Part shown: positions 12,301-64,000 of the stretch, piece after piece | How the letters are laid out: each line of letters begins with the position of its first letter | Position numbering within the stretch: the stretch's first letter is position 1 | Assembly: GCA_964016885.1 (NCBI GenBank) | Contig: OZ024747.1 | Span: forward strand, 44,764,001-44,828,000 | Length of the DNA stretch: 64,000 nucleotides | Source of the DNA: Eledone cirrhosa | Taxonomy: Eukaryota | Direction of reading: 5' to 3' | Notes under the pieces: generated by a model | Told to the model about the DNA's origin: nothing | The model's input: only the letters and a program-made list of their open reading frames with translations | The model's database searches: none | Made by a program: the position numbers and the translations under genes

Positions 12301-14160
12301 CATCATCATCATCATCAACGTTTAACGTCCGTGTTCCACGCTTGCATGGGTTTGGACGGGGGTTTTCCCACTTGAGGCAAGAGGTATTGTCTTGCTCGCA
12401 TAGGACTGTCTGGCAGTTTTTCTACAGTTGGTTGCCCTTCCTAACACCAACCACATTTACAGTGTGGGTCTGGGAGGTTTTTACCGTGTTGCCTACACGA
12501 CCACATTACAGCGTGGACTGTGTGTTTTTTTGTCGTGACACCTACACGATCTCATTTGTTTTGGCCTGGATGGTGTGGCACCAACATAACTTTACATAGA
12601 AGGGGGCGGTGTGGATGGGGTGGGGGTGGTGGGACGGGGTGTATTTTGTTAGAGATGCCTACTGACTGTAGTAGGTTTTACTTTGTATTTAGGTAAGGCG
12701 GGTCTTCTCTATTACTGAGTATCGCCAAAGGTCTCGGTCTAGTGACATTGTCTTGGTGAGGTGTAAGTGTGTGAGGTCGGAGTTTATCAGCTCGTCCCAG
12801 GTTTTTCTGGGTCTGCCTATTCCGTGGCTACCGTCTATCTTTATTGCCCTGCACTTTGTTATACAGCTATCGTCCTTCATGCGCATCACGTGACCATACC
12901 AACGTAGCCTTCTCTCTAGTAAACAACATCTGATCCCTCTTATTTCTAATTTTTTCCTTAGTTCATTTATGCTTTGTCGTTCACGTATATTACTATTACA
13001 CATCCAGCGGAGCATGCAAGCTTCGTTTCTCTCTAGTCTGCGTATATCCTCTGCACACAATGCCCAGGTCTCACTGCCATGCAACATTGCTGTTCGTATG
13101 CAGGCATCGTACAGCCTGCCTTTCATTTTTAGGGGGAACCCTTTAGCGGCTAATAGTGGTATAAGCTCTCTGAACTTTTTCCACCCAGTTCTGACTCTAG
13201 CTACTGTACTTTCAGAGCACCCTCCCCCACTGCTGATTTTGTCACCCAGGTAACGGAAGCTGTCCACTATTTCTATAGAACCCTCTGCGCAGTTGAAAGA
13301 GCTAGTATTTTGTGGGCACTTGCTGCTACTTATTGCCCCAGAACACCGGCCACATGTAAATCTATGTTCTTAGTTAGCTTACCTGTGATCCCACTACATC
13401 TTTTATGCACACAAACTTTGCATTTGGGACACAAAATGGAATTTCTACCTATGCCTTTCCTACACTCTGCGCATGGCCACTTCCCGGAGGGGACCGCCAC
13501 CTTATTTTCTTTCTTACAAACTAGAACTTTAGTCTTAGCCAGGTTAATTTTAAGGCCTTTTGATTCTAGGCCGTGCTTCCATGTTTGGAATTTCTTCTCT
13601 AGCTCGGCCATTGATTCAGCTATGAGCGTTAGATCATCTGCGTATAGGAGTTCCCATGGGCAGCCGGTCTTGCACTCCACTGTTATAGCCTGGAGGGCAA
13701 TAATAAATAGTAGGGGGCTAAAAACAGAGCCCTGATGAACACCAACTTTTACACTAAACTCTTCACTATATTCGTTGTTAATTCTAACCTTGCTGACTGT
13801 TTCTTTATACATGGCTTGTATAGCTCTCACAAGCCATTCATCAACCCCTAGTTTTCTAAGAGCCCACCAGATAATGGAACGGGGGACTCTGTCGAAGGGC
13901 TTCTCCAAGTCGACGAAAGCTAAGTATAGGGGTTTACTTTTAGCTAGGTACTTCTCCTGTAGTTGTTGTACAATGAAAAGAGCGTCTGTGGTACTTTTTC
14001 CTGACACAAACCCGAACTGCATTTCATCTAGATCAATTCGCTCTCTGATTAGTTGCGCTATTACTTTTTCCGTGACCTTCATGACCTGGTCGATTAATTT
14101 AATGCCTCTATAGTTACTCCTATCTAGGGCATCTCCTTTACCCTTATAACAGTTAACGAT
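12301..14160 (-). mobile_element. 5'-truncated RTE-clade LINE (RT, Cys-rich insert, C-terminal domain, 3'UTR, (GAT)n tail)
   Basis: ORF 13330-14082 has QFGFVSGKSTTDA, FVDLEKPFD, GVHQGS, LLYADDL and CxxC motifs. ORF 12689-13267 has FRYLG, LHGSETW, RLRWYGHV and GRPRKTW. One frameshift lies near 13360. A (CAT)n tail is at 12301-12316, and (TA)n flanks both sides. Confidence 0.95.
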
Positions 14161-14209
14161 AATATATATATATATATATATATATATACATTATATATAT
14201 ATCATTATT

Positions 14210-54584: not shown

Positions 54585-55003
54585 TCTTGCTCATACATTC
54601 TATTTTTTGGCTTGGTTTTCAATGGCTATATACCCTTCCCAATGCCAACCATTTTACAATGTGTACTGGGAGAATTTTATCATAATTCCAGCTTTACCAC
54701 CTTACAAAATGAACTAGGTACTTGTGGCCCCAGCACTACCACCTTACAGAGTCGACTGGGAGCTTTTTTGCATGGTACCAAACTACCAATTTACAGTGTG
54801 TACTGGGTATATTTTTTGGGGGGTAGATTGGGTAATTTTTGTCGTGGCATCAGCACTATCACTTTACAGGTTGGATTTGGTGTTTTTTGCTGTGGTACCA
54901 GTACTACCACATTACAGGGTGGACTGGAAGCATTTTATTATTGCTCCAAAACTATCACTTTACAGAGTGTGCTGGGTGCATTTTATCATGGCATGAACAC
55001 TAA
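54585..55003 (-). mobile_element. Old RTE 3'UTR fragment with ~8 diverged internal subrepeats
   Basis: Repeated c(c/a)actttacag(a/t)gtg..ctggg..tttt..tgg(c/t)acc units homologous to the 48-bp unit at 58880. Confidence 0.7.
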
Positions 55004-55247
55004 ACATACTGATTTAATTTAGTTAGACATATGCAGTGTCTATTTCTTACATGAAAGTATTAATTATAATCAACCTAATTAACTCCCACCTTTATGTATT
55101 TCTCTTTTTTATGTGAACCTACAAGGAGTATCTACATGAGGGGTATCCGAAGTGGTCACCCTCATGATTTGATGGAACTACACAGGTGGTCAATTGATTT
55201 TTTGGGCCAAAACCTGACATTTGTATAAGAAAGGAAAATATATAAAA

Positions 55248-55370
55248 TAATAGTTTCTATTTTTGGCACAAGGCCAGCAATTTGAAGGGGGGAGGGGGGT
55301 CTATTAAATCGACCCTAGCGCATTACTAGTATCTATTTTATTGACCCCATAGGGATGAAAGGCAAAGCTA
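55248..55370 (-). mobile_element. Nin/Deu-domain SINE 3' half
   Basis: Reverse complement of the 3' end and the core. Confidence 0.75.
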
Positions 55371-56270
55371 ACAATAAAATACAGCTTGCTTATTCAGGTT
55401 TCCAATTAATATATAATTAGCATTTATTGTCAATCTTGTTTTACTGTATATTTAGTTATTTATTTGCTTATTTATTTTTGTACATAACTCAGATAATCGA
55501 GTCTTCAAGGATTCCATGAAGGAGCCAATGATTAAAAGATTTTTGTGACTCTTGGTCTACATTGTCACTTGGCTTGCTAGAAATAGTAGTCAAAATTTAC
55601 TCAACTCACACTCTACCATCTTAAAATATAAGGTCACATTGAAAACTCAATTTACATGCTTCTCAGATGGTGGGGAACCCTAAATCATATATCAGCTTGA
55701 TCAGTTCTGATCTGGGGTTAAACAACAACAATAGAAGTAACAGTAACAGCAGCTACAACAACAAAAACAACAATCAATGGCTTCAGCAGCAGTAATGGTA
55801 TGAAACACACCTTCAACAACAACAAAAGCAGCAGCAGTAGTAGCAGTAGCTCCTGCACTAGAACTATGACCACATCAAGCAACAACTGATATGTATTTTA
55901 TTGATTCCTCGGGAGCAGATGAAATTCACAGATGGCACAGCCATTGAAATAAAACCTGCTTCTATAATGTACAACAGATGCTACCAATGATGGTTTGCTT
56001 TTAACTAAGCTTAAAATTGTTACTGTTTTTGTTGTTGTTATTATTGTTTCCTTAGACTTTTAAGAGTAAGTAGAAACTCTAACACCACATCTGTTACCTA
56101 CCACAGGTAAAAGAAAACAACTTACAGTATTAATCTTTTGATTTTTATATGTGATGTTAAATAATATATATACATATAAAGTAATGATAATAAATGTGAA
56201 GACTAAAATCCAAAGAGTGCTCGATAAGGATAATATATATATATATAATATATAAGAACCCTAGAGCAAA

Positions 56271-56433
56271 TATTTATTAAAATAACAGATTAAAGTTTAA
56301 GCAAAGAATCATTGCTCTCACTCTTAACGGGATCTTCTGAAACTAAAAATTGATTTTTTAGTTTCAGAAGATCCCGTTAAGGGTGAAAGCAGCGATTCTT
56401 TGCTTAAACTTTAATCTGTAATTTTAATAAATA
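56271..56433. repeat. Near-perfect ~80-bp-arm palindrome, each arm containing a hammerhead-like fold
   Basis: tatttattaaaat..gatcttctgaaactaaaaa-ttga-tttttagtttcagaagatc..attttaataaata. Confidence 0.93.
56360..56410 (+). ncRNA. Type-I hammerhead-like fold with variant core CAGAAGA (mirror copy at 56294-56344, minus strand)
   Basis: Stem I agttt/aaact, CAGAAGA, t-ccc/ggg-t stem II, GAAA, stem III agca/tgct and triplet CUU. The mirror copy has GAGA in place of GAAA. Confidence 0.6.
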
Positions 56434-56516
56434 TATACATATATATATAAGTTATTCTGGGTTGAATCGGAGGTAACCACAGTAAGAAAGGTACTCAATA
56501 CATAGCAGAGTATAAA

Positions 56517-56567
56517 AGCTTCCTGTTGATTTCTCACGAATGAAACAGTTCTAGTCCTGTAGAAGCT
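56517..56567 (+). ncRNA. Type-I hammerhead-like fold with variant core CTGTTGA
   Basis: Stem I agcttc/gaagct (6 bp), t-ttc/gaa-t stem II, GAAA, stem III acag/ctgt and triplet GUA. Confidence 0.65.
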
Positions 56568-56602
56568 CTTCTATATTAATACATATATATATATATATAT
56601 AT

Positions 56603-56977
56603 AGTTTTGCGAGGTTTTTGATATGAAATCGTGTGTCGAAACAAATATTGTTATACTTGGGGAGGGTCATACTTGTGTAATAATATTTAAAGATGGCGTA
56701 GGCATACAATGCAATGGGAGGAAACATAATAGCACCACTGACGATGTTGCAGATGTGCAATGAAAGAATTTTGTTAGACTATATATATGTGTTTGTGTCT
56801 ATATTGTATCTGTATTTTTGACTGTTGATCAGTCAATGGCAACATTGAGGACTGAATAAATTAGATTACCGATATAAAAGACACAGAAGCAAAAACCAAC
56901 CAAACAGTGAGTGTGTTCTGTTATTAATTCTGGCAATATTATTACACAAATATGACCCTCCCCAAGTATAACAATAT
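56603..56977. mobile_element. Inverted-repeat element (TIR family atattgttatacttggggagggtcat...)
   Basis: 56645-56687 is the near-exact reverse complement of 56936-56977. Confidence 0.7.
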
Positions 56978-57134
56978 ATATATATATATATATAATCATC
57001 ATCATTACTATTGTTTTCACATCCACGAATTGTACAGGAGTGTGAGATGATGTTTTATAGCCGGATGCCCTTCCTAATGCCAACCTTCTTAGTCTCCTCT
57101 TATCATATGCAGGGATATAATGTACCTATTCTAA

Positions 57135-57690
57135 AATCTGAGATACATATTATTATTCTTTATGAGGGTCATGCTGCCAATAAAAACACAGGCACCAGTT
57201 GAGTTTTGCTTTCAGTTCATTATTAACCAGGTAATTAGCCAGAAGGCAGTGGATTGGCAGTATCAGTAGAGAGTCGGACGCCATGCTTTGACGCATGGAG
57301 TTACGGCCCTTGCCATTCTGAGTTCAAATCCCGCCGAGGTTAACTTTGCCTTTCATCCTTACGGGGTCGATAAAATAAAGTACCAGTAATGCACTGGGTA
57401 ATTGCTGGCCTTGTGACTAAAGTAGAAACTTTAATTAGCCAGCTAACTAATCTATATCTTGGTTAGTTTAGCAACTAGATGGTTATTTGTAATTTTGAAA
57501 ATTAAATATGACAATTAGATAACCAGCTGGTTAACTAACTAACTAAGGAATGGATTTCTTACTTAACTAATAATGAAACTGAAGTGACCTTAACTGTAGC
57601 ATGTTTTTATTGACAGCATAACTCTCCTAAAGTATAACAATATCTGTATTCAGTGCATGATTTCACATCAGGAATCTTGCTAAACAAATA
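57135..57690. mobile_element. Older long-TIR element of the same family, interrupted by a SINE
   Basis: 57141-57232 is a diverged inverted copy of 57560-57650. The reverse complement of 57620-57690 matches 56603-56670. Confidence 0.65.
57243..57431 (+). mobile_element. Young Nin/Deu-domain tRNA SINE (short variant) with 11-bp TSD
   Basis: Full head and core with CpGs intact. taattagccag occurs at 57232-57242 and 57432-57442. Confidence 0.92.
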
Positions 57691-57781
57691 CAAAAGAAAA
57701 GTGAGTAAATATATATATATACATATATATATATATACACAATATATTAATAAATGGAAACTATATTTATAAAACCATATT

Positions 57782-57847
57782 TATTTTATTATATATATTT
57801 CAAGGGCAACCAAGGCAAATTATGGTGTGCTTTCATCAGATAAAATA
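57782..57847 (-). ncRNA. Type-I hammerhead ribozyme motif (copy 1)
   Basis: Minus strand: tattttat-CTGATGA-aagcacacca..tggttgccctt-GAAA-tatat-ATA-ataaaata. It has a perfect 8-bp stem I, an intact core and a palindromic stem/loop III. Confidence 0.8.
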
Positions 57848-58017
57848 CAGATTTGTTTTATAAATAAATACTGACATACCCGGAAAAAAGACAACCTTAA
57901 CGATTGGAGCTTCCTGGAAGCTCCAACCGTTATCCAGGAAGCTCCAACCGTCAAGAAATTATTGGAGTAAATATACAATATATTAACAAATGGAAACTAT
58001 ATTTATAAAACCATATT

Positions 58018-58083
58018 TATTTCATTATACATATTTCAAGGGCCACCATGGCAAATTATGGTGCGCTTTCATCAGATAAAATA
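58018..58083 (-). ncRNA. Type-I hammerhead ribozyme motif (copy 2)
   Basis: Minus strand: tattttat-CTGATGA-aagcgcaccat/aatttgcc/atggtggccctt-GAAA-tatgt-ATA-atgaaata. Confidence 0.8.
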
Positions 58084-58138
58084 CAATACAATATAGATTA
58101 GTTTTATAAATATTTATTTATAAAACTAATCTGTATTG

Positions 58139-58204
58139 TATTTTATCTGATGAATGCGCACCATAATTTGCCTTGGTGGCCCTTGAAATATGTATAATGA
58201 AATA
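58139..58204 (+). ncRNA. Type-I hammerhead ribozyme motif (copy 3, inverted partner of copy 2)
   Basis: tattttat-CTGATGA(58147-58153)-atgcgcacca..tggtggccctt-GAAA(58185-58188)-tatgt-ATA-atgaaata. Confidence 0.78.
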
Positions 58205-58340
58205 AATATGGTTTTATAAATATTGTTTCCATTTGTTAATATATTCTATATATATATTTGCTCTACGGTTCTTATATATTTGATATATATTTATCCTTAT
58301 CGAGCCATCTTTGGATTTTAGTCTTCAAATTTATTATTAT

Positions 58341-58392
<52 letters not shown>

Positions 58393-58727
58393 CAAAGGTA
58401 AAACTATATACACAATGCTCAAAGAAAAGTAGAGAATTATATATGATAGTATATAACTGGTATGTCTTTGCAGAATTAGCTCAATGTGCTTATATATTAT
58501 ATAGGTTTGAAGAGAAAGACATTTTTAGAGAGAAAGATTAAGAGATGCAGACATAAACACAGAGCAAATATAAACAATTATATCGATGGAAATAATTATC
58601 TTTTATCTTTTAAAACCATGATTGTGGGTGTAAGCTTATTTGTGTTGGTATGTTGCTAAACACTAACCTGTATAAGTGTGATTATATGGATGCTAGTATT
58701 TCTGTGTGGGTATACAACTGTCTCTTT

Positions 58728-59575
58728 ATCATCATCATCGTTTAATGTTTATTTACCAAGCTAGCATGGGTTTGACAGGTTTGCTCCATTAGAAGCAAGT
58801 TGGGTCGGATGACCATGTCTCCTTCATATAGGAGTGTTACTGGCTAGTTTTCTATGGGTGGATGCCCTTCCTAATGACAACAACTTTACAGTGTGTGCTG
58901 GGTGCTTTTTGCCATGTCTCCTACACTACCACTTTACAGTGTGTGCTGGGTACTTTTTGCCATGTCTCCTACACTACCACTTTACAGTGTGTGCTGGGTG
59001 CTTTTTGCCATGTCCCCTACACTACCACTTTACAGTGTGTGCTGGGTGCTTTTTACCATGTCTCCTACACTACCACTTTACAGTGTGTGCTGGGTGCTTT
59101 TTGCCATGTCCCCTACACTACCACTTTACAGTGTGTGCTGGGTGCTTTTTGCCATGTCCCCTACACTACCACTTTACAGTGTGTGCTGGGTGCTTTTTGC
59201 CATGTCCCCTACACTACTACTTTACAGTGTGTGCTGGGTGCTTTTTGCCTTGTCTCCTACACTACCACTTTATAGTGTGTGCTGGGTACTTTTTGCCATG
59301 TCCCCTACACTACTACTTTACAGTGTGTGCTGGGTGCTTTTTGCCTTGTCTCCTACACTACCACTTTATAGTGTGTGCTGGGTACTTTTTGCCATGTCTC
59401 CTACACTGCCACTTTACAGTGTGTGCTGGGTACTTTTTGCCATGTCTCCTACACTACCACTTTACAGTGTGTGCTGGGTACTTTTTGCCATGTCTCCTAC
59501 ACTACCACTTTACAGTGTGTGCTGGGTGCTTTTTGCCATGTCTCCTACACTACCACTTTACAGTGTAGGCTAGAT
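58728..59575 (-). mobile_element. RTE 3'UTR fragment hosting a minisatellite
   Basis: (CAT)n-gtttaatg end, gctagcatgggtttgac and ggatgcccttcctaa, as in the other RTE 3' ends. Confidence 0.8.
58882..59566. repeat. 48-bp minisatellite, ~14 copies (ccactttacagtgtgtgctgggtgctttttgccatgtctcctacacta)
   Basis: Seen directly. The overlapping ORFs show 16-aa periodicity. Confidence 0.98.
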
Positions 59576-60529
59576 GCTTTTGTGGTACCATATATACATT
59601 TGGAAAGAGGTGAATTTTTCAGGCAACTTGTATTTCCATATTTAGCCTTAAAACAGTTGATATCAAAGTAAACATATAGCATTTAAGCTGGTGTATACAG
59701 TTGCATATATTTTGATGTGTGCAGGCATACACTTCTAGATATATAGATCATTAAGGGCATGGATGTACATATGCATGTAGGTGTGTATATGTGTCTGTGT
59801 ATGGGGGCATGTGTGTATATATATATATATGTGTGTGGGTATGAATGTAGGTGTACATCTTTATATGGATATATAGATATGTATCTATATGTATCTATGA
59901 GTATCTAAAGGTACCTATGAGTATATAGGTATATAGATAGCTATATAGGTGTGATTATTAGAATATATACATATATGTATGTGGATATACATAAGTATAT
60001 GTGTGTGTGTATATATATAATTATGCAGGTCCGTCAATGAGCCTGTATGAGTGTATGTATATGTGTGTATGTGAATGTGGATGTGTCCCTCTATATACGT
60101 GGTGCTAATTGCTATTCATTTTAAATTAGTCTACTTTACCCCTCCCCCGCATATAAAAGACGGTTAAATTCCATTAATTATTTCCTTTTGTTAGAAGTAA
60201 AATAAGGTTTGTTTGTTTGATTTTGAAAATATTTTTATTTCCTTTTTATATCTTTAAAGTTAGGAAAATGAGGTTACGAGAGCCACAGAAAAAGCGTTAA
60301 ATTTTATGCACTGGCACTGGTATCTTTTCCAGGAGAAGTCTTGTACTCTCTGTCACTTAACATCACAGAAACTGGGATAAACAACACTGACCTAGTGAGC
60401 CTCTGGGCTCAAGACAGACATTAGACTTAATATATATATAAATTCAGTGAGAATCGCATTTCGGCGGGTAGAAAAAGCGAAACGCAACGCAAATTCCGAG
60501 TCATGCTGGCAAGCGCTCCAAAGTCTCTA

Positions 60530-60561
<32 letters not shown>

Positions 60562-60562
<1 letters not shown>

Positions 60563-60925
60563 CATCATCAGCATTTTACGTCCATTTTTCCCTGCTTGCA
60601 AGGGTGGGACGGGAACTAATTCTGGCTTAATTTCTACAGCTGGATGCCCTTCCTAACACCAACCTCATTTATAGTGAGTGCTGGGTGCTTTTGTTCCGTG
60701 GTGCCTACACGTCCACTTTACAGTGTGGGCTGGGTGCTTTTTTGCCATGGTACCTCCACGACCACTTTGCAGTGGAATGTTAGGGACCCCAGTCCTATCA
60801 TCTCATTTTTACAGCTGAGTAAACTGGAGCAATGTGAAATAAAGTGTCTTGCTCAAGGAAACAATACATCACCCGGTGTGAGAATTAAACTCACAACCTT
60901 TCGATTGCAAGGCCAATGTACCTCA

Positions 60926-60926
<1 letters not shown>
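60562..60926 (-). mobile_element. tRNA-derived SINE with RTE-derived 3' tail (same family as 14928-15262)
   Basis: Reverse complement aligns along its length with the 14928 copy, retains an extra 3'UTR subrepeat, and is flanked by (TA)n. Confidence 0.85.
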
Positions 60927-60966
<40 letters not shown>

Positions 60967-61477
60967 TAAATTCAGCGAGAATCGTATTTTGGCGGGTAGA
61001 AAAAGGGAAACGAAATGCAAAATCGTAGTAATGCTGGCAAGTGCTCCAATAGTTAAAAAACTAGAGCTAAACAATATGTTAAAACGCCATATAAACTGAA
61101 AAAGTGGTCAAGAAGGCATTAACCACCTAAGCCAAAAAAACAAATCAAGCTAAACAGGTCAAACAAAATAAATGATAAAGACAGACCTGGACCCAAATGG
61201 AATTGATGGTAAAATCCAAATGCAGGGCTTCTATGACACCTAAATCAATAATACTGTCTGCTTAAAACTATAAGCTTTTGGTAAAATGATCGAACAAGGA
61301 ATATCACGTTATCAACAGGTATTTTGCTCTGCACCAACTTTGTGAATGACGTAGAGCTTTGTAAAAGCACATGTGTAATTCACAAGGGGAAAACCCCTGA
61401 TTTTGGCAAATGAATTCAGTATGTGTGTATCATGCAAAAAATTGCATTGATAGCAGAAATTGAATAAGCACTCAACA

Positions 61478-61819: not shown

Positions 61820-64000
61820 TTTTCTTTATTAACCACAAGGGTTTACATAAAGTAGACATTAAGGACAGTACAGGACAATACAGGACGGTACAAATGGGCA
61901 TTTCTGCGTGTAAAAAAAACAGAGGTTGAAATAAAATAACAAAGAAAAAAAAAAACAAAAAAAAAAAAACAAAGAAAAATTCCCCAATAGGGGGAGACTT
62001 CCGAGGGACATTTGTGGAGAAAGCCCATTAAAAAACCACAGTGGCCCTGACCACCAGGGCAAGTGCCCTCTCCCAGTTTTCCACCTTTAATTTACAGACA
62101 CATACTCAGAGAAGGCCCATTCATTCGGGCCATACTTGCTTCTCTCACCCATCTTTCAACAAAATGCTGGGAAGAGAGCACTTCCCTCTCTACCCTGATT
62201 TTCCTTTTCAAATGAAATTTGAAAAAGTTAATCAGGGCATCACCGAAGAGGTAAGTGCTCGTCTTCAGCCCTTTCAAACGTGTCCACCATACTATCTCTT
62301 TCGCCATGGCCACCAGACAGATAAAAACTGCCTGCCCTTCCAGGCTAAAGGAAGGGGGCGGGGCAATCCTCACGATGGACTCAGCTGATAGCTGGATCCG
62401 TCCTACACGTGACAGCAGGTGTTCGACATAAACCCACAAGTCAGCAATGCTCGGACACTGGACGAGTGCGTGCAGGACGGTTTCGTCGCCCTGCGCGCAT
62501 CTCGGACATGCCCGGCTGACGGCACTTCCATGCCTGTAGAGTTTATCCCGAACTGGCAAAGCTCCTCGGTAGCACTGCCAGGCCAGGGATTTCTGGAAGT
62601 TGTCCATAGGCCCCGGCCCGAAAGTCCTTCCGAAGAGATTGGCTAGTTGATTTTCGTCGACGCCTAGAGTTTCTCCAAGTACGTCGTCGCTCTTCCCCTC
62701 CACTAATCCCCTATAGAACGCCAAGGTGGAGTTTCCACCGATCACATTGCCCGATTGGTCGAGGGCTGTGAGCGCCTGAAGACATTCCAGTCTCCAAGCG
62801 CTCCCTCTCGGTTTTCGCTTGACCCAGGACTGCAGCTCCGTCAAGGAGACGAGCTGGGGAAAAACGTGTCTTGCAAACGGCGACCACACCTGATCACCGT
62901 CGAGGAAGAGGTGGAGATGTCGTAGCCTGAGCGCGTGTCTGCGCATCATCAGCCACGGCATGCCCAGCCCTCCACGTAGCGGGTGTTGACAGCAGATGGA
63001 CCGCCTGACCATCGGAGCGCGTCCCTTCCACAAGAAGCGAAAGAGCAAACGCTCCAGCGCAGTCAGGCGGGGCTTAGGACAAGGTACGACGGTCAGGCGG
63101 TAGTAGATGACGGATGCGATGTACGCATTCGCCACCTCCGCTCGACCTTTCAGGGATAGCTTCCTCTCGGCCCATTTCTGGGTGAGAGAAGCCACCCTGC
63201 TCGTCACCTCGTCCCAGTTTTTGTCCGTCTGGAGGTCTGGACCGAACCAGACCCCTAGCAATTTAACCGGTCCGTCCGTCCAGCGCCCGACGGCGCTGTT
63301 GGACGGCATGGACCTGCCTCTCCAGGTGCCGAGCTGCAGGCCCACTGACTTTTCCTGGTTGATCATTGCTCCTGTCACCGCTTCGTATTCCCTTAGTGTA
63401 GTGCCGATCGCCTCGATGTGTTTGGCGTTCGACACCACTACGGTGACATCGTCGGCATATGCTGACACGGATCTTCCGCATCCTAGTTCGCGCGGGACCC
63501 CCCTCAACGTCTCCAGTTTGTGCAGTAATGGCTCGAGAGTCAATACGTACAATAGGGTCGAGAGGGGACATCCTTGGCGGACCGAGCGCATGATGTTGAA
63601 CGGTTCCGAAAGGTGACCGTTCACTCTCACTACAGAGCAGATGTCGCTGTGCATGGCAGCGATCCAGCCTCTGAAGACGGGCCCAAAGCCAGCCGCCCTC
63701 AGGACTGCCGTTAGGTAACGATGGTCGACCCTATCGAAGGCTTTCGACTGATCTAAATTGATCAAAGACCCACCCGTGCCAGGTTCCCTAGCTACCCTCT
63801 CTACGATGTATCGCATGAGGTGGAGGTTGTCGTGGATGGATCTGTCGGGAATGGCGCATGTCTGTGCCTCTCCCACCAGACCACCAACGACAAGCGCCAA
63901 CCTCTTTGCTAGCACCTTGGCCAAAATCTTGAACTCTGTGTTTAGCAGAGTTATGGGCCTAAAATTATCTATGTTATCCCCCTTGTTCGGATCCTTTCTC
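61790..64000 (-). mobile_element. Young Tx1/L1-clade non-LTR retrotransposon, 3' part (continues beyond the window)
   Basis: Uninterrupted ORF2, 3'UTR, AATAAA (minus strand, 61830-61825) and a (TTA)n tract at ~61790-61818. It is GC- and CpG-rich relative to its flanks. Confidence 0.93.
62092..64000 (-). CDS. Tx1/L1-type ORF2: reverse transcriptase + C-terminal CCHC zinc finger (5'-partial)
   Basis: The frame is open to the window edge (RKDPNKGDNIDNFRPITLLNTEFKILAKVLAKRL). Motifs include LDQSKAFDRV, SVRQGCPLS, AYADD, LSLKGR, GGLG and CPRC..ETVLHALVQC. Confidence 0.93.
   Translation of the reverse strand, partial: RKDPNKGDNIDNFRPITLLNTEFKILAKVLAKRLALVVGGLVGEAQTCAIPDRSIHDNLHLMRYIVERVAREPGTGGSLINLDQSKAFDRVDHRYLTAVLRAAGFGPVFRGWIAAMHSDICSVVRVNGHLSEPFNIMRSVRQGCPLSTLLYVLTLEPLLHKLETLRGVPRELGCGRSVSAYADDVTVVVSNAKHIEAIGTTLREYEAVTGAMINQEKSVGLQLGTWRGRSMPSNSAVGRWTDGPVKLLGVWFGPDLQTDKNWDEVTSRVASLTQKWAERKLSLKGRAEVANAYIASVIYYRLTVVPCPKPRLTALERLLFRFLWKGRAPMVRRSICCQHPLRGGLGMPWLMMRRHALRLRHLHLFLDGDQVWSPFARHVFPQLVSLTELQSWVKRKPRGSAWRLECLQALTALDQSGNVIGGNSTLAFYRGLVEGKSDDVLGETLGVDENQLANLFGRTFGPGPMDNFQKSLAWQCYRGALPVRDKLYRHGSAVSRACPRCAQGDETVLHALVQCPSIADLWVYVEHLLSRVGRIQLSAESIVRIAPPPSFSLEGQAVFICLVAMAKEIVWWTRLKGLKTSTYLFGDALINFFKFHLKRKIRVEREVLSSQHFVERWVREASMARMNGPSLSMCL

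Follow-up and report, generated by a model that had tools for sequence, protein, structure and literature searches.

Does the cluster of three hammerhead motifs at 57735..58343 mark a small self-processing retroelement, or is it what remains of a larger one? It lies in a 64-kb stretch of Eledone cirrhosa DNA, which we refer to as the window. A sequence-only reading had described this interval as an ORF-less cassette of three hammerhead copies with intact core. It regarded the unit as a Penelope pseudo-LTR or as a retrozyme-like family with a ~236-nt monomer, and proposed as checks Rfam models, a descriptor scan and a genome-wide survey of copies, stem covariation and ORF linkage.

All three copies are present at the sites described. 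A 118-nt direct repeat (57732-57849 and 57968-58085; 93% identity, offset 236 nt) and a 132-nt inverted repeat (57968-58099 and 58123-58254; 93%) confirm that two copies are direct repeats on the minus strand and that the third mirrors the second. Each copy has the three helices and the type I core (CUGANGA / GAAA / UH), with CUGAUGA, GAAA, an 8-bp stem I, a 31-nt stem II region, an AUA triplet and a self-complementary 8-nt stem III, which is AUAUAUAU in copy 1 and AUAUGUAU in copies 2 and 3. Motifs 1 (57782..57847) and 2 (58018..58083) are located on the minus strand, with H17 at 57790 and 58026 and predicted cuts, 236 nt apart, at 57790/57789 and 58026/58025. Motif 3 (58139..58204) is located on the plus strand, with H17 at 58196 and a predicted cut at 58196/58197. 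A generic hammerhead descriptor applied to the whole 64-kb window recovered copies 1 and 2 and nothing more, and the same descriptor gave 0 matches in 40 Markov-resampled windows, indicating that the hammerhead motifs of the cassette are not due to chance. Copy 3 was missed since the second pair of its stem II is a U.U mismatch, a point on which the earlier description has to be corrected. Rfam hammerhead models gave no match at E ≤ 10 in 55000-61000. The pair 10.1-11.1 is A-U in the cassette hammerheads, instead of the usual G-C, and the hammerhead fold of each copy, as a monomer, lies ~7 kcal/mol above the predicted minimum-energy fold.

The sequence surrounding related motifs elsewhere in the genome identifies the source of the unit. 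A genome search with the unit returned 45 matches from 40 scored of 90 candidates, and an exact 25-mer of the motif has 12,273 genomic matches. Followed upstream, the shared sequence continues through a long AT-rich stretch into an ORF in which YRDD, a cysteine linker and a GIY-YIG-like segment can be recognised. In 8 long copies the hammerhead is found 1290-1993 nt behind the stop codon, and in three loci (L077, L079 and L081) a hammerhead cut is predicted 186-197 nt upstream of the ATG. The unit represents the 3' end, or pseudo-LTR, of a Hydra-type Penelope element, here called family A, and long copies link it directly to an ORF for an RT and a putative endonuclease, in agreement with the Penelope assignment of the sequence-only reading. 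A tblastn search of the window with the family ORF was empty, and the cassette is indeed without it.

The ORF of ~740 aa (742 aa in L079; damaged at two motifs in L077) combines a telomerase-like RT with a putative GIY-YIG-type domain. A protein search of the genome yielded 105 matches with at least 79% identity, several of them in open frames longer than 700 aa; its 87,289 first-look candidates do not represent a copy number. The L079 protein carries YRDD, DKT, RW-R, CxCx5C, YVG and CxxC-EE motifs and lacks CCHH. RWR is situated at about residue 38 and DKT at 118 (present in 39 and 54 of 54 aligned proteins, respectively), CNCRNKSNC at 601, CDLCIEE at 699 and CRH/CKH near the end. Among the matches listed, 274 relatives share 33-48% identity with it, and the one that carries a species name is from Argonauta hians. 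Since the single-sequence model of the protein reached a pLDDT of 35, an alignment-based model with 53 relatives was used instead (pLDDT 87), and its top 7 Foldseek matches are telomerase RTs (best E 3e-9). The fold search supports the RT, whereas the putative endonuclease is without such a fold match; inspection reveals YVG and a conserved pattern of R, E and N, and the model contains a three-strand/helix module. Pfam GIY-YIG was matched weakly by 3 of 54 relatives (E ~0.001-0.01) and by none of family A's own ORFs. Pfam searches with 5 ORF fragments and 3 long ORFs returned nothing meaningful, and neither a single protein nor a 54-row profile had a significant match among PDB sequences. The probable placement in the Hydra clade is based on the motif match, the (TA)n targets and the architecture, with the RT recognized by fold. 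A Naiad identity, considered for this family and for the second family (B) introduced below, was ruled out by the C-terminal endonuclease motifs and the CxCx5C linker. The summed element length is ~3.7-4.4 kb, compared with 'generally <3 kb' for Hydra families. Literature searches on hammerheads with Penelope and octopus, and on the Hydra clade, revealed no description of families A and B. A repeat paper on Octopus vulgaris reports 31 young Penelope-like families and, in the text available, leaves hammerheads unmentioned (PMC13282606), so that both families may sit unnamed in repeat libraries.

Compared with family A, the cassette resolves into distinct parts between two (TA)n tracts read from the sequence, at 57706..57731 (left insertion boundary) and 58344..58377 (right boundary). 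Copy 1 (57732..57918, minus strand) is a 5'-truncated 3' end forming a tail-less arm with (TA)n at its end, and its subfamily differs from that of copies 2 and 3. It is identical at 180 of 187 positions to element ends in L088 and L030, and, over 136 nt, shares 99% identity with the pLTR that precedes the ORF of L077. Its nearest neighbours are L077, L030 and L039 (1-3 differences), with which it shares diagnostic letters as well as a shorter upstream segment, which occurs in 5 other copies. Two short inverted 3' UTR pieces of ~17 and ~25 nt follow (57916..57955, plus strand), matching the 3' UTR of L084, L088 and L012 in reverse orientation; they are likely what is left of the other arm of the copy-1 insertion. 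The next 16 nt (57956..57971, minus strand) are the first of the family's ~90-nt tail, which then breaks off and is complete in 30 other copies. This tail sequence is also the start of the 5' UTR, being found between hammerhead and ATG in L077, L079 and L081. Copy 2 (57972..58111, minus strand) is a 5'-truncated pseudo-LTR and the tail-bearing arm of a two-armed insertion, of which copy 3 (58112..58253, plus strand), an inverted 5'-truncated pseudo-LTR with a short TA run at its end, is the tail-less arm. Copies 2 and 3 differ from each other at 3 of 105 positions, and copy 1 has 6 and 7 differences from them. As the within-locus pairs at L018 and L020 likewise differ at 7 of 105 positions, this distance alone is suggestive and does not prove two events. 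In four contig sets (from one study, kind unrecorded), the units of the cassette occur in very many repeats, and no single piece reaches across the whole cassette.

The remaining part, 58250..58343 on the plus strand, is a solo tail of family B and lies outside the hammerhead cassette proper. A search with it gave 796 first-look candidates, 40 of which were scored, at 96-100%. In L044, L049 and many of L098-L127 it is found behind the body of family B, which rules it out as the cassette's own tail. The interval 57735..58343 that had been proposed as the cassette is thus correct for the hammerhead units but not for its last part, 58250-58343, which is the tail of another repeat family.

The arrangement of copies 2 and 3 recurs throughout family A. 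The ~90-nt tail is present on one arm only in 18 of the 19 scorable back-to-back pairs, the same pattern as in copies 2 and 3; 21 pairs had passed the equal-stem-II-start filter, 2 were unscorable at a locus edge, and the count left out the window loci, loci inside larger re-fetched ones and L098-L127. A tail on one side of a two-armed insertion is the architecture drawn for PLEs (PMC8557442). Tail-less ends run into TA tracts in 31 of 36 cases and full-tail ends in 21 of 30. The first 100 listed sites of the 25-mer, examined by eye, include 9 back-to-back pairs separated by less than 300 nt and 0 same-strand pairs within 900 nt.

We propose that the element protein nicks (TA)n DNA and that reverse transcription would start at two fixed internal points of the RNA, ~50 and ~140 nt past the hammerhead cut, in line with the two internal RT starts and optional tail reported in vitro for an anole PLE (PMC11167929). 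An early stop of reverse transcription would leave one tail-less arm and one tailed arm. Copies 2 and 3 would represent one insertion event, and copy 1 with the short inverted pieces a second event involving the other subfamily, whose other arm would have been lost together with most of the tail of copy 2. Partial deletion of the facing arms of the two insertions would be the simplest history. The cassette is, with high probability, composed of three truncated Hydra-type Penelope 3' ends with predicted hammerheads, likely from two neighbouring two-armed insertions into a TA tract, which were then likely fused by deletion. Alternatively, a single insertion with template switching, beginning on a copy-1-type RNA and passing through two fold-backs, a jump to the tail of a second RNA and another fold-back, might have generated the structure with no later deletion. 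This would fit the short inverted pieces, the few bases of apparent microhomology at 57951-57956 and the lack of a TA tract separating copies 1 and 2, but it requires a start 16 nt into the tail, and only 2 of the 32 tail-bearing ends in the sample scored short. Moreover, one break accounts for both truncations in the deletion model. Template switching is therefore an unlikely course of events, albeit one to be taken seriously, and we favour two insertions joined by a deletion.

The same pieces bear on the proposal of a non-LTR retrozyme, in which two hammerheads would excise a 236-nt non-coding unit that then circularises and re-inserts as a family of its own. Two intact motifs 236 nt apart on one strand fit the 150-450-nt range given for animals (PMC7229834), the proposed origin of retrozymes is in PLE pLTRs (bioRxiv 10.64898/2026.07.22.740005), and a related subfamily forms a three-unit tandem with spacings of 251 and 238 nt on contig C1063 (L096). 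However, a genome-wide search for same-strand pairs of an exact 17-mer at 221-251 nt, which misses some pairs but would not miss a family, found 5 pairs (one in the window, two isolated ones and two that overlap within the C1063 three-unit array), against 12,273 motif matches. All their spacers are different, ruling out 236 nt as a conserved period; for other array periods, the inspection covered the first 100 listed sites. No 236-nt unit appears in the output of Tandem Repeats Finder at score 150. Units 1 and 2 come from different subfamilies, and the spacer is composed of junction pieces, in the order end of copy 2, 16-nt tail stub, two inverted 3' UTR pieces and 5'-truncated sense end. A retrozyme is expected to be a non-coding family separate from its autonomous element, with an amplified monomer of 150-450 nt in tandem or dispersed; the unit instead ends an ORF-bearing element, and no such amplification was found. 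The claim of a retrozyme-like family with a ~236-nt monomer is not supported, since the unit is not amplified and the spacer is a patchwork of truncated family pieces. We consider a retrozyme at this locus highly improbable, and the 236-nt tandem is likely a one-off junction of two insertions. At L096 (C1063:12564-15818), the three same-strand units have similar spacers and are accompanied by an opposite arm; this array is possibly an incipient retrozyme-like array or a local duplication.

A further claim was that the palindrome places a ribozyme on both strands. This holds for the DNA. It is nothing special to this locus, the inverted arm being routine in the family. For an RNA that reads through the fold-back, the prediction is that the arms pair into a long hairpin, in which the probability of stem I is ~0 on both strands; freeing both minus-strand motifs would require 98 kcal/mol, compared with 11 kcal/mol if copy 3 is excluded. 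Read-through of the fold-back is thus predicted to lock the ribozymes in a hairpin, and the hammerhead in this cassette would be a passive passenger.

The situation may be different in the full element. The collected loci yielded 103 motifs, of which 100 were kept after dropping 3 from overlapping loci; the core is intact in 85 and all criteria are satisfied in 73. Core conservation in this sample is partly built in by the search pattern, which left stem II free. Across 16 chosen representatives, two-sided changes occur in 9 of 9 stem II pairs and 93.7% of cells are paired, a value as high being reached in 0 of 500 shuffles (a test inflated by relatedness) and slid controls giving 36-53%. Stem I shows one-sided wobble changes only, the pairs of stem III are invariant, and a mismatch at the fourth position of stem II, C.C or C.A, persists. 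Stem III is AUAUAUAU, AUAUGUAU or, once, AUACGUAU, with self-pairing duplexes of -3.2, -2.2 and -6.5 kcal/mol, respectively. The covariation of stem II across subfamilies suggests that the fold was selected in master elements and is likely under selection in full elements. Distant hammerhead families were also observed (L085 1057-1190, minus; L073 470-603, plus; L095 2719-2840, minus; L094 1985-2127, minus), with the same stems I and III and an unrelated, fully compensated stem II.

It could be argued that the hammerheads are decayed relics, functionless today even in master elements. The hammerhead fold is not the predicted ground state, the pair 10.1-11.1 is A-U, the sister family B reaches 15,173 matches with a U4-to-A core, and the anole PLE inserts in vitro without hammerhead cleavage (PMC11167929). 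Against this, the stem II changes are compensatory across eight sequence classes, and 12 core positions are fixed in 16 of 17 representatives while the flanks diverge, making a relic quite improbable. If kept by selection, the hammerhead of the full element would most likely cut weakly, as a stem III dimer or assisted by protein, and cutting would serve to process tandem transcripts. PLE hammerheads with a self-pairing stem III are described as cutting weakly, as dimers (PMC4209133), and the anole hammerhead needed protein, its cleavage not being required for insertion in vitro (PMC11167929). All collected copies span the cut site, from which we infer that the copied RNA was uncut or re-joined there.

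Family B adds a second case. Its endonuclease end is found ~930 nt upstream in 5 of 30 loci and is 42% identical to that of family A, and it is another Hydra-type element. At the hammerhead position it has a hammerhead-shaped motif with CAGAAGA, that is, U4 changed to A; exact matches to this version number 15,173, against 133 with C, G or T at that position. Three stems can be drawn for the putative family B hammerhead. A U4C change is reported to lower activity and yet to support a viroid (PMC3088659), and a literature search on U4A core variants of the hammerhead found no natural U4A core. In the copies of the window, L044, L049 and L098-L127, this motif has a CUU triplet and a 3-bp stem II with a U.U mismatch below it. 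A two-armed family B remnant is present in the window at 56164-56434, with the fold-back at 56270-56434 and the tail at 56164-56270. Family A keeps, likely under structural selection, a canonical core and a palindromic stem III suited to dimer cleavage in at least 12,273 copies, and its sister B has spread at least as well (15,173 matches). It is conceivable, although we rate it as rather doubtful, that U4A is an active natural variant or that the fold is a structural signal rather than a cutter, and that in family A a cut-to-cut RNA of ~4 kb, possibly circular, is the template of the cut-spanning copies.

Other repeats of the window include a 25.6-kb satellite at 17887-43466 (40-bp unit, ~639 copies, 93% matches, strong strand skew) and a 48-bp minisatellite of 14.6 copies at 58883-59581, to which single units near 60641-60791 are related. 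On the minus strand, open frames of 226-635 aa at ~62100-63999, 13300-14200 and 1800-2530 resemble fragments of LINE reverse transcriptases by inspection, and inverted repeats of 42-43 nt around 250-410 nt (56645-56687 / 56935-56977 and 57147-57188 / 57602-57643) are MITE-like. The cassette locus itself is ordinary transposon debris. It cautions that two hammerheads at retrozyme-length spacing need not be a retrozyme, and it draws attention to two Hydra-type Penelope families that are large, fairly young and equipped with long open ORFs. Taken together, the canonical-core and U4A families make it testable in vitro whether Penelope elements need hammerhead cutting, a matter presented as open in two studies (PMC8557442, PMC11167929).

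Family A corresponds closely to the Hydra clade as described by Craig et al. (2021, PMC8557442): a single ORF for an RT and, in family A, a putative EN, with RW(K/R), DKT and CxCx5C and no CCHH, a canonical hammerhead close to the 3' end, (TA)n targets, partial tandems, an inverted 5'-truncated arm and a one-sided tail. A Hydra-clade Penelope with a hammerhead, Hydra-1_Obim of Octopus bimaculoides, has already been described, and its hammerhead differs in sequence from that of family A (PMC8557442). With the PLE hammerheads of Cervera and de la Pena (2014, PMC4209133), family A shares type I, a short palindromic helix III suited to dimers, a long helix II with an internal defect and the pLTR location. 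It differs from those presented there in its 8-bp helix I, often extendable past a bulge, in the A10.1-U11.1 of most subfamilies instead of the conserved G-C, and in having, as the fourth pair of helix II, a C.C or C.A mismatch that is conserved. The cassette shares with metazoan non-LTR retrozymes (Cervera and de la Pena 2020, PMC7229834; Li et al. 2026 preprint) a spacing of a few hundred nt between type I hammerheads, a low GC content and the lack of an ORF at this locus; in contrast to them as reported, it has no amplified monomer or array and its sequence is the end of a coding element. Finally, the Poseidon PLE of Anolis carolinensis (Frangieh et al. 2024, PMC11167929) resembles family A in that its insertions end at two fixed points downstream of the hammerhead, its targets are rich in AT and its copies span the cut site. 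Poseidon belongs to another clade and its hammerhead overlaps the start of the ORF, whereas the family A cut is situated ~190 nt upstream of the ATG.
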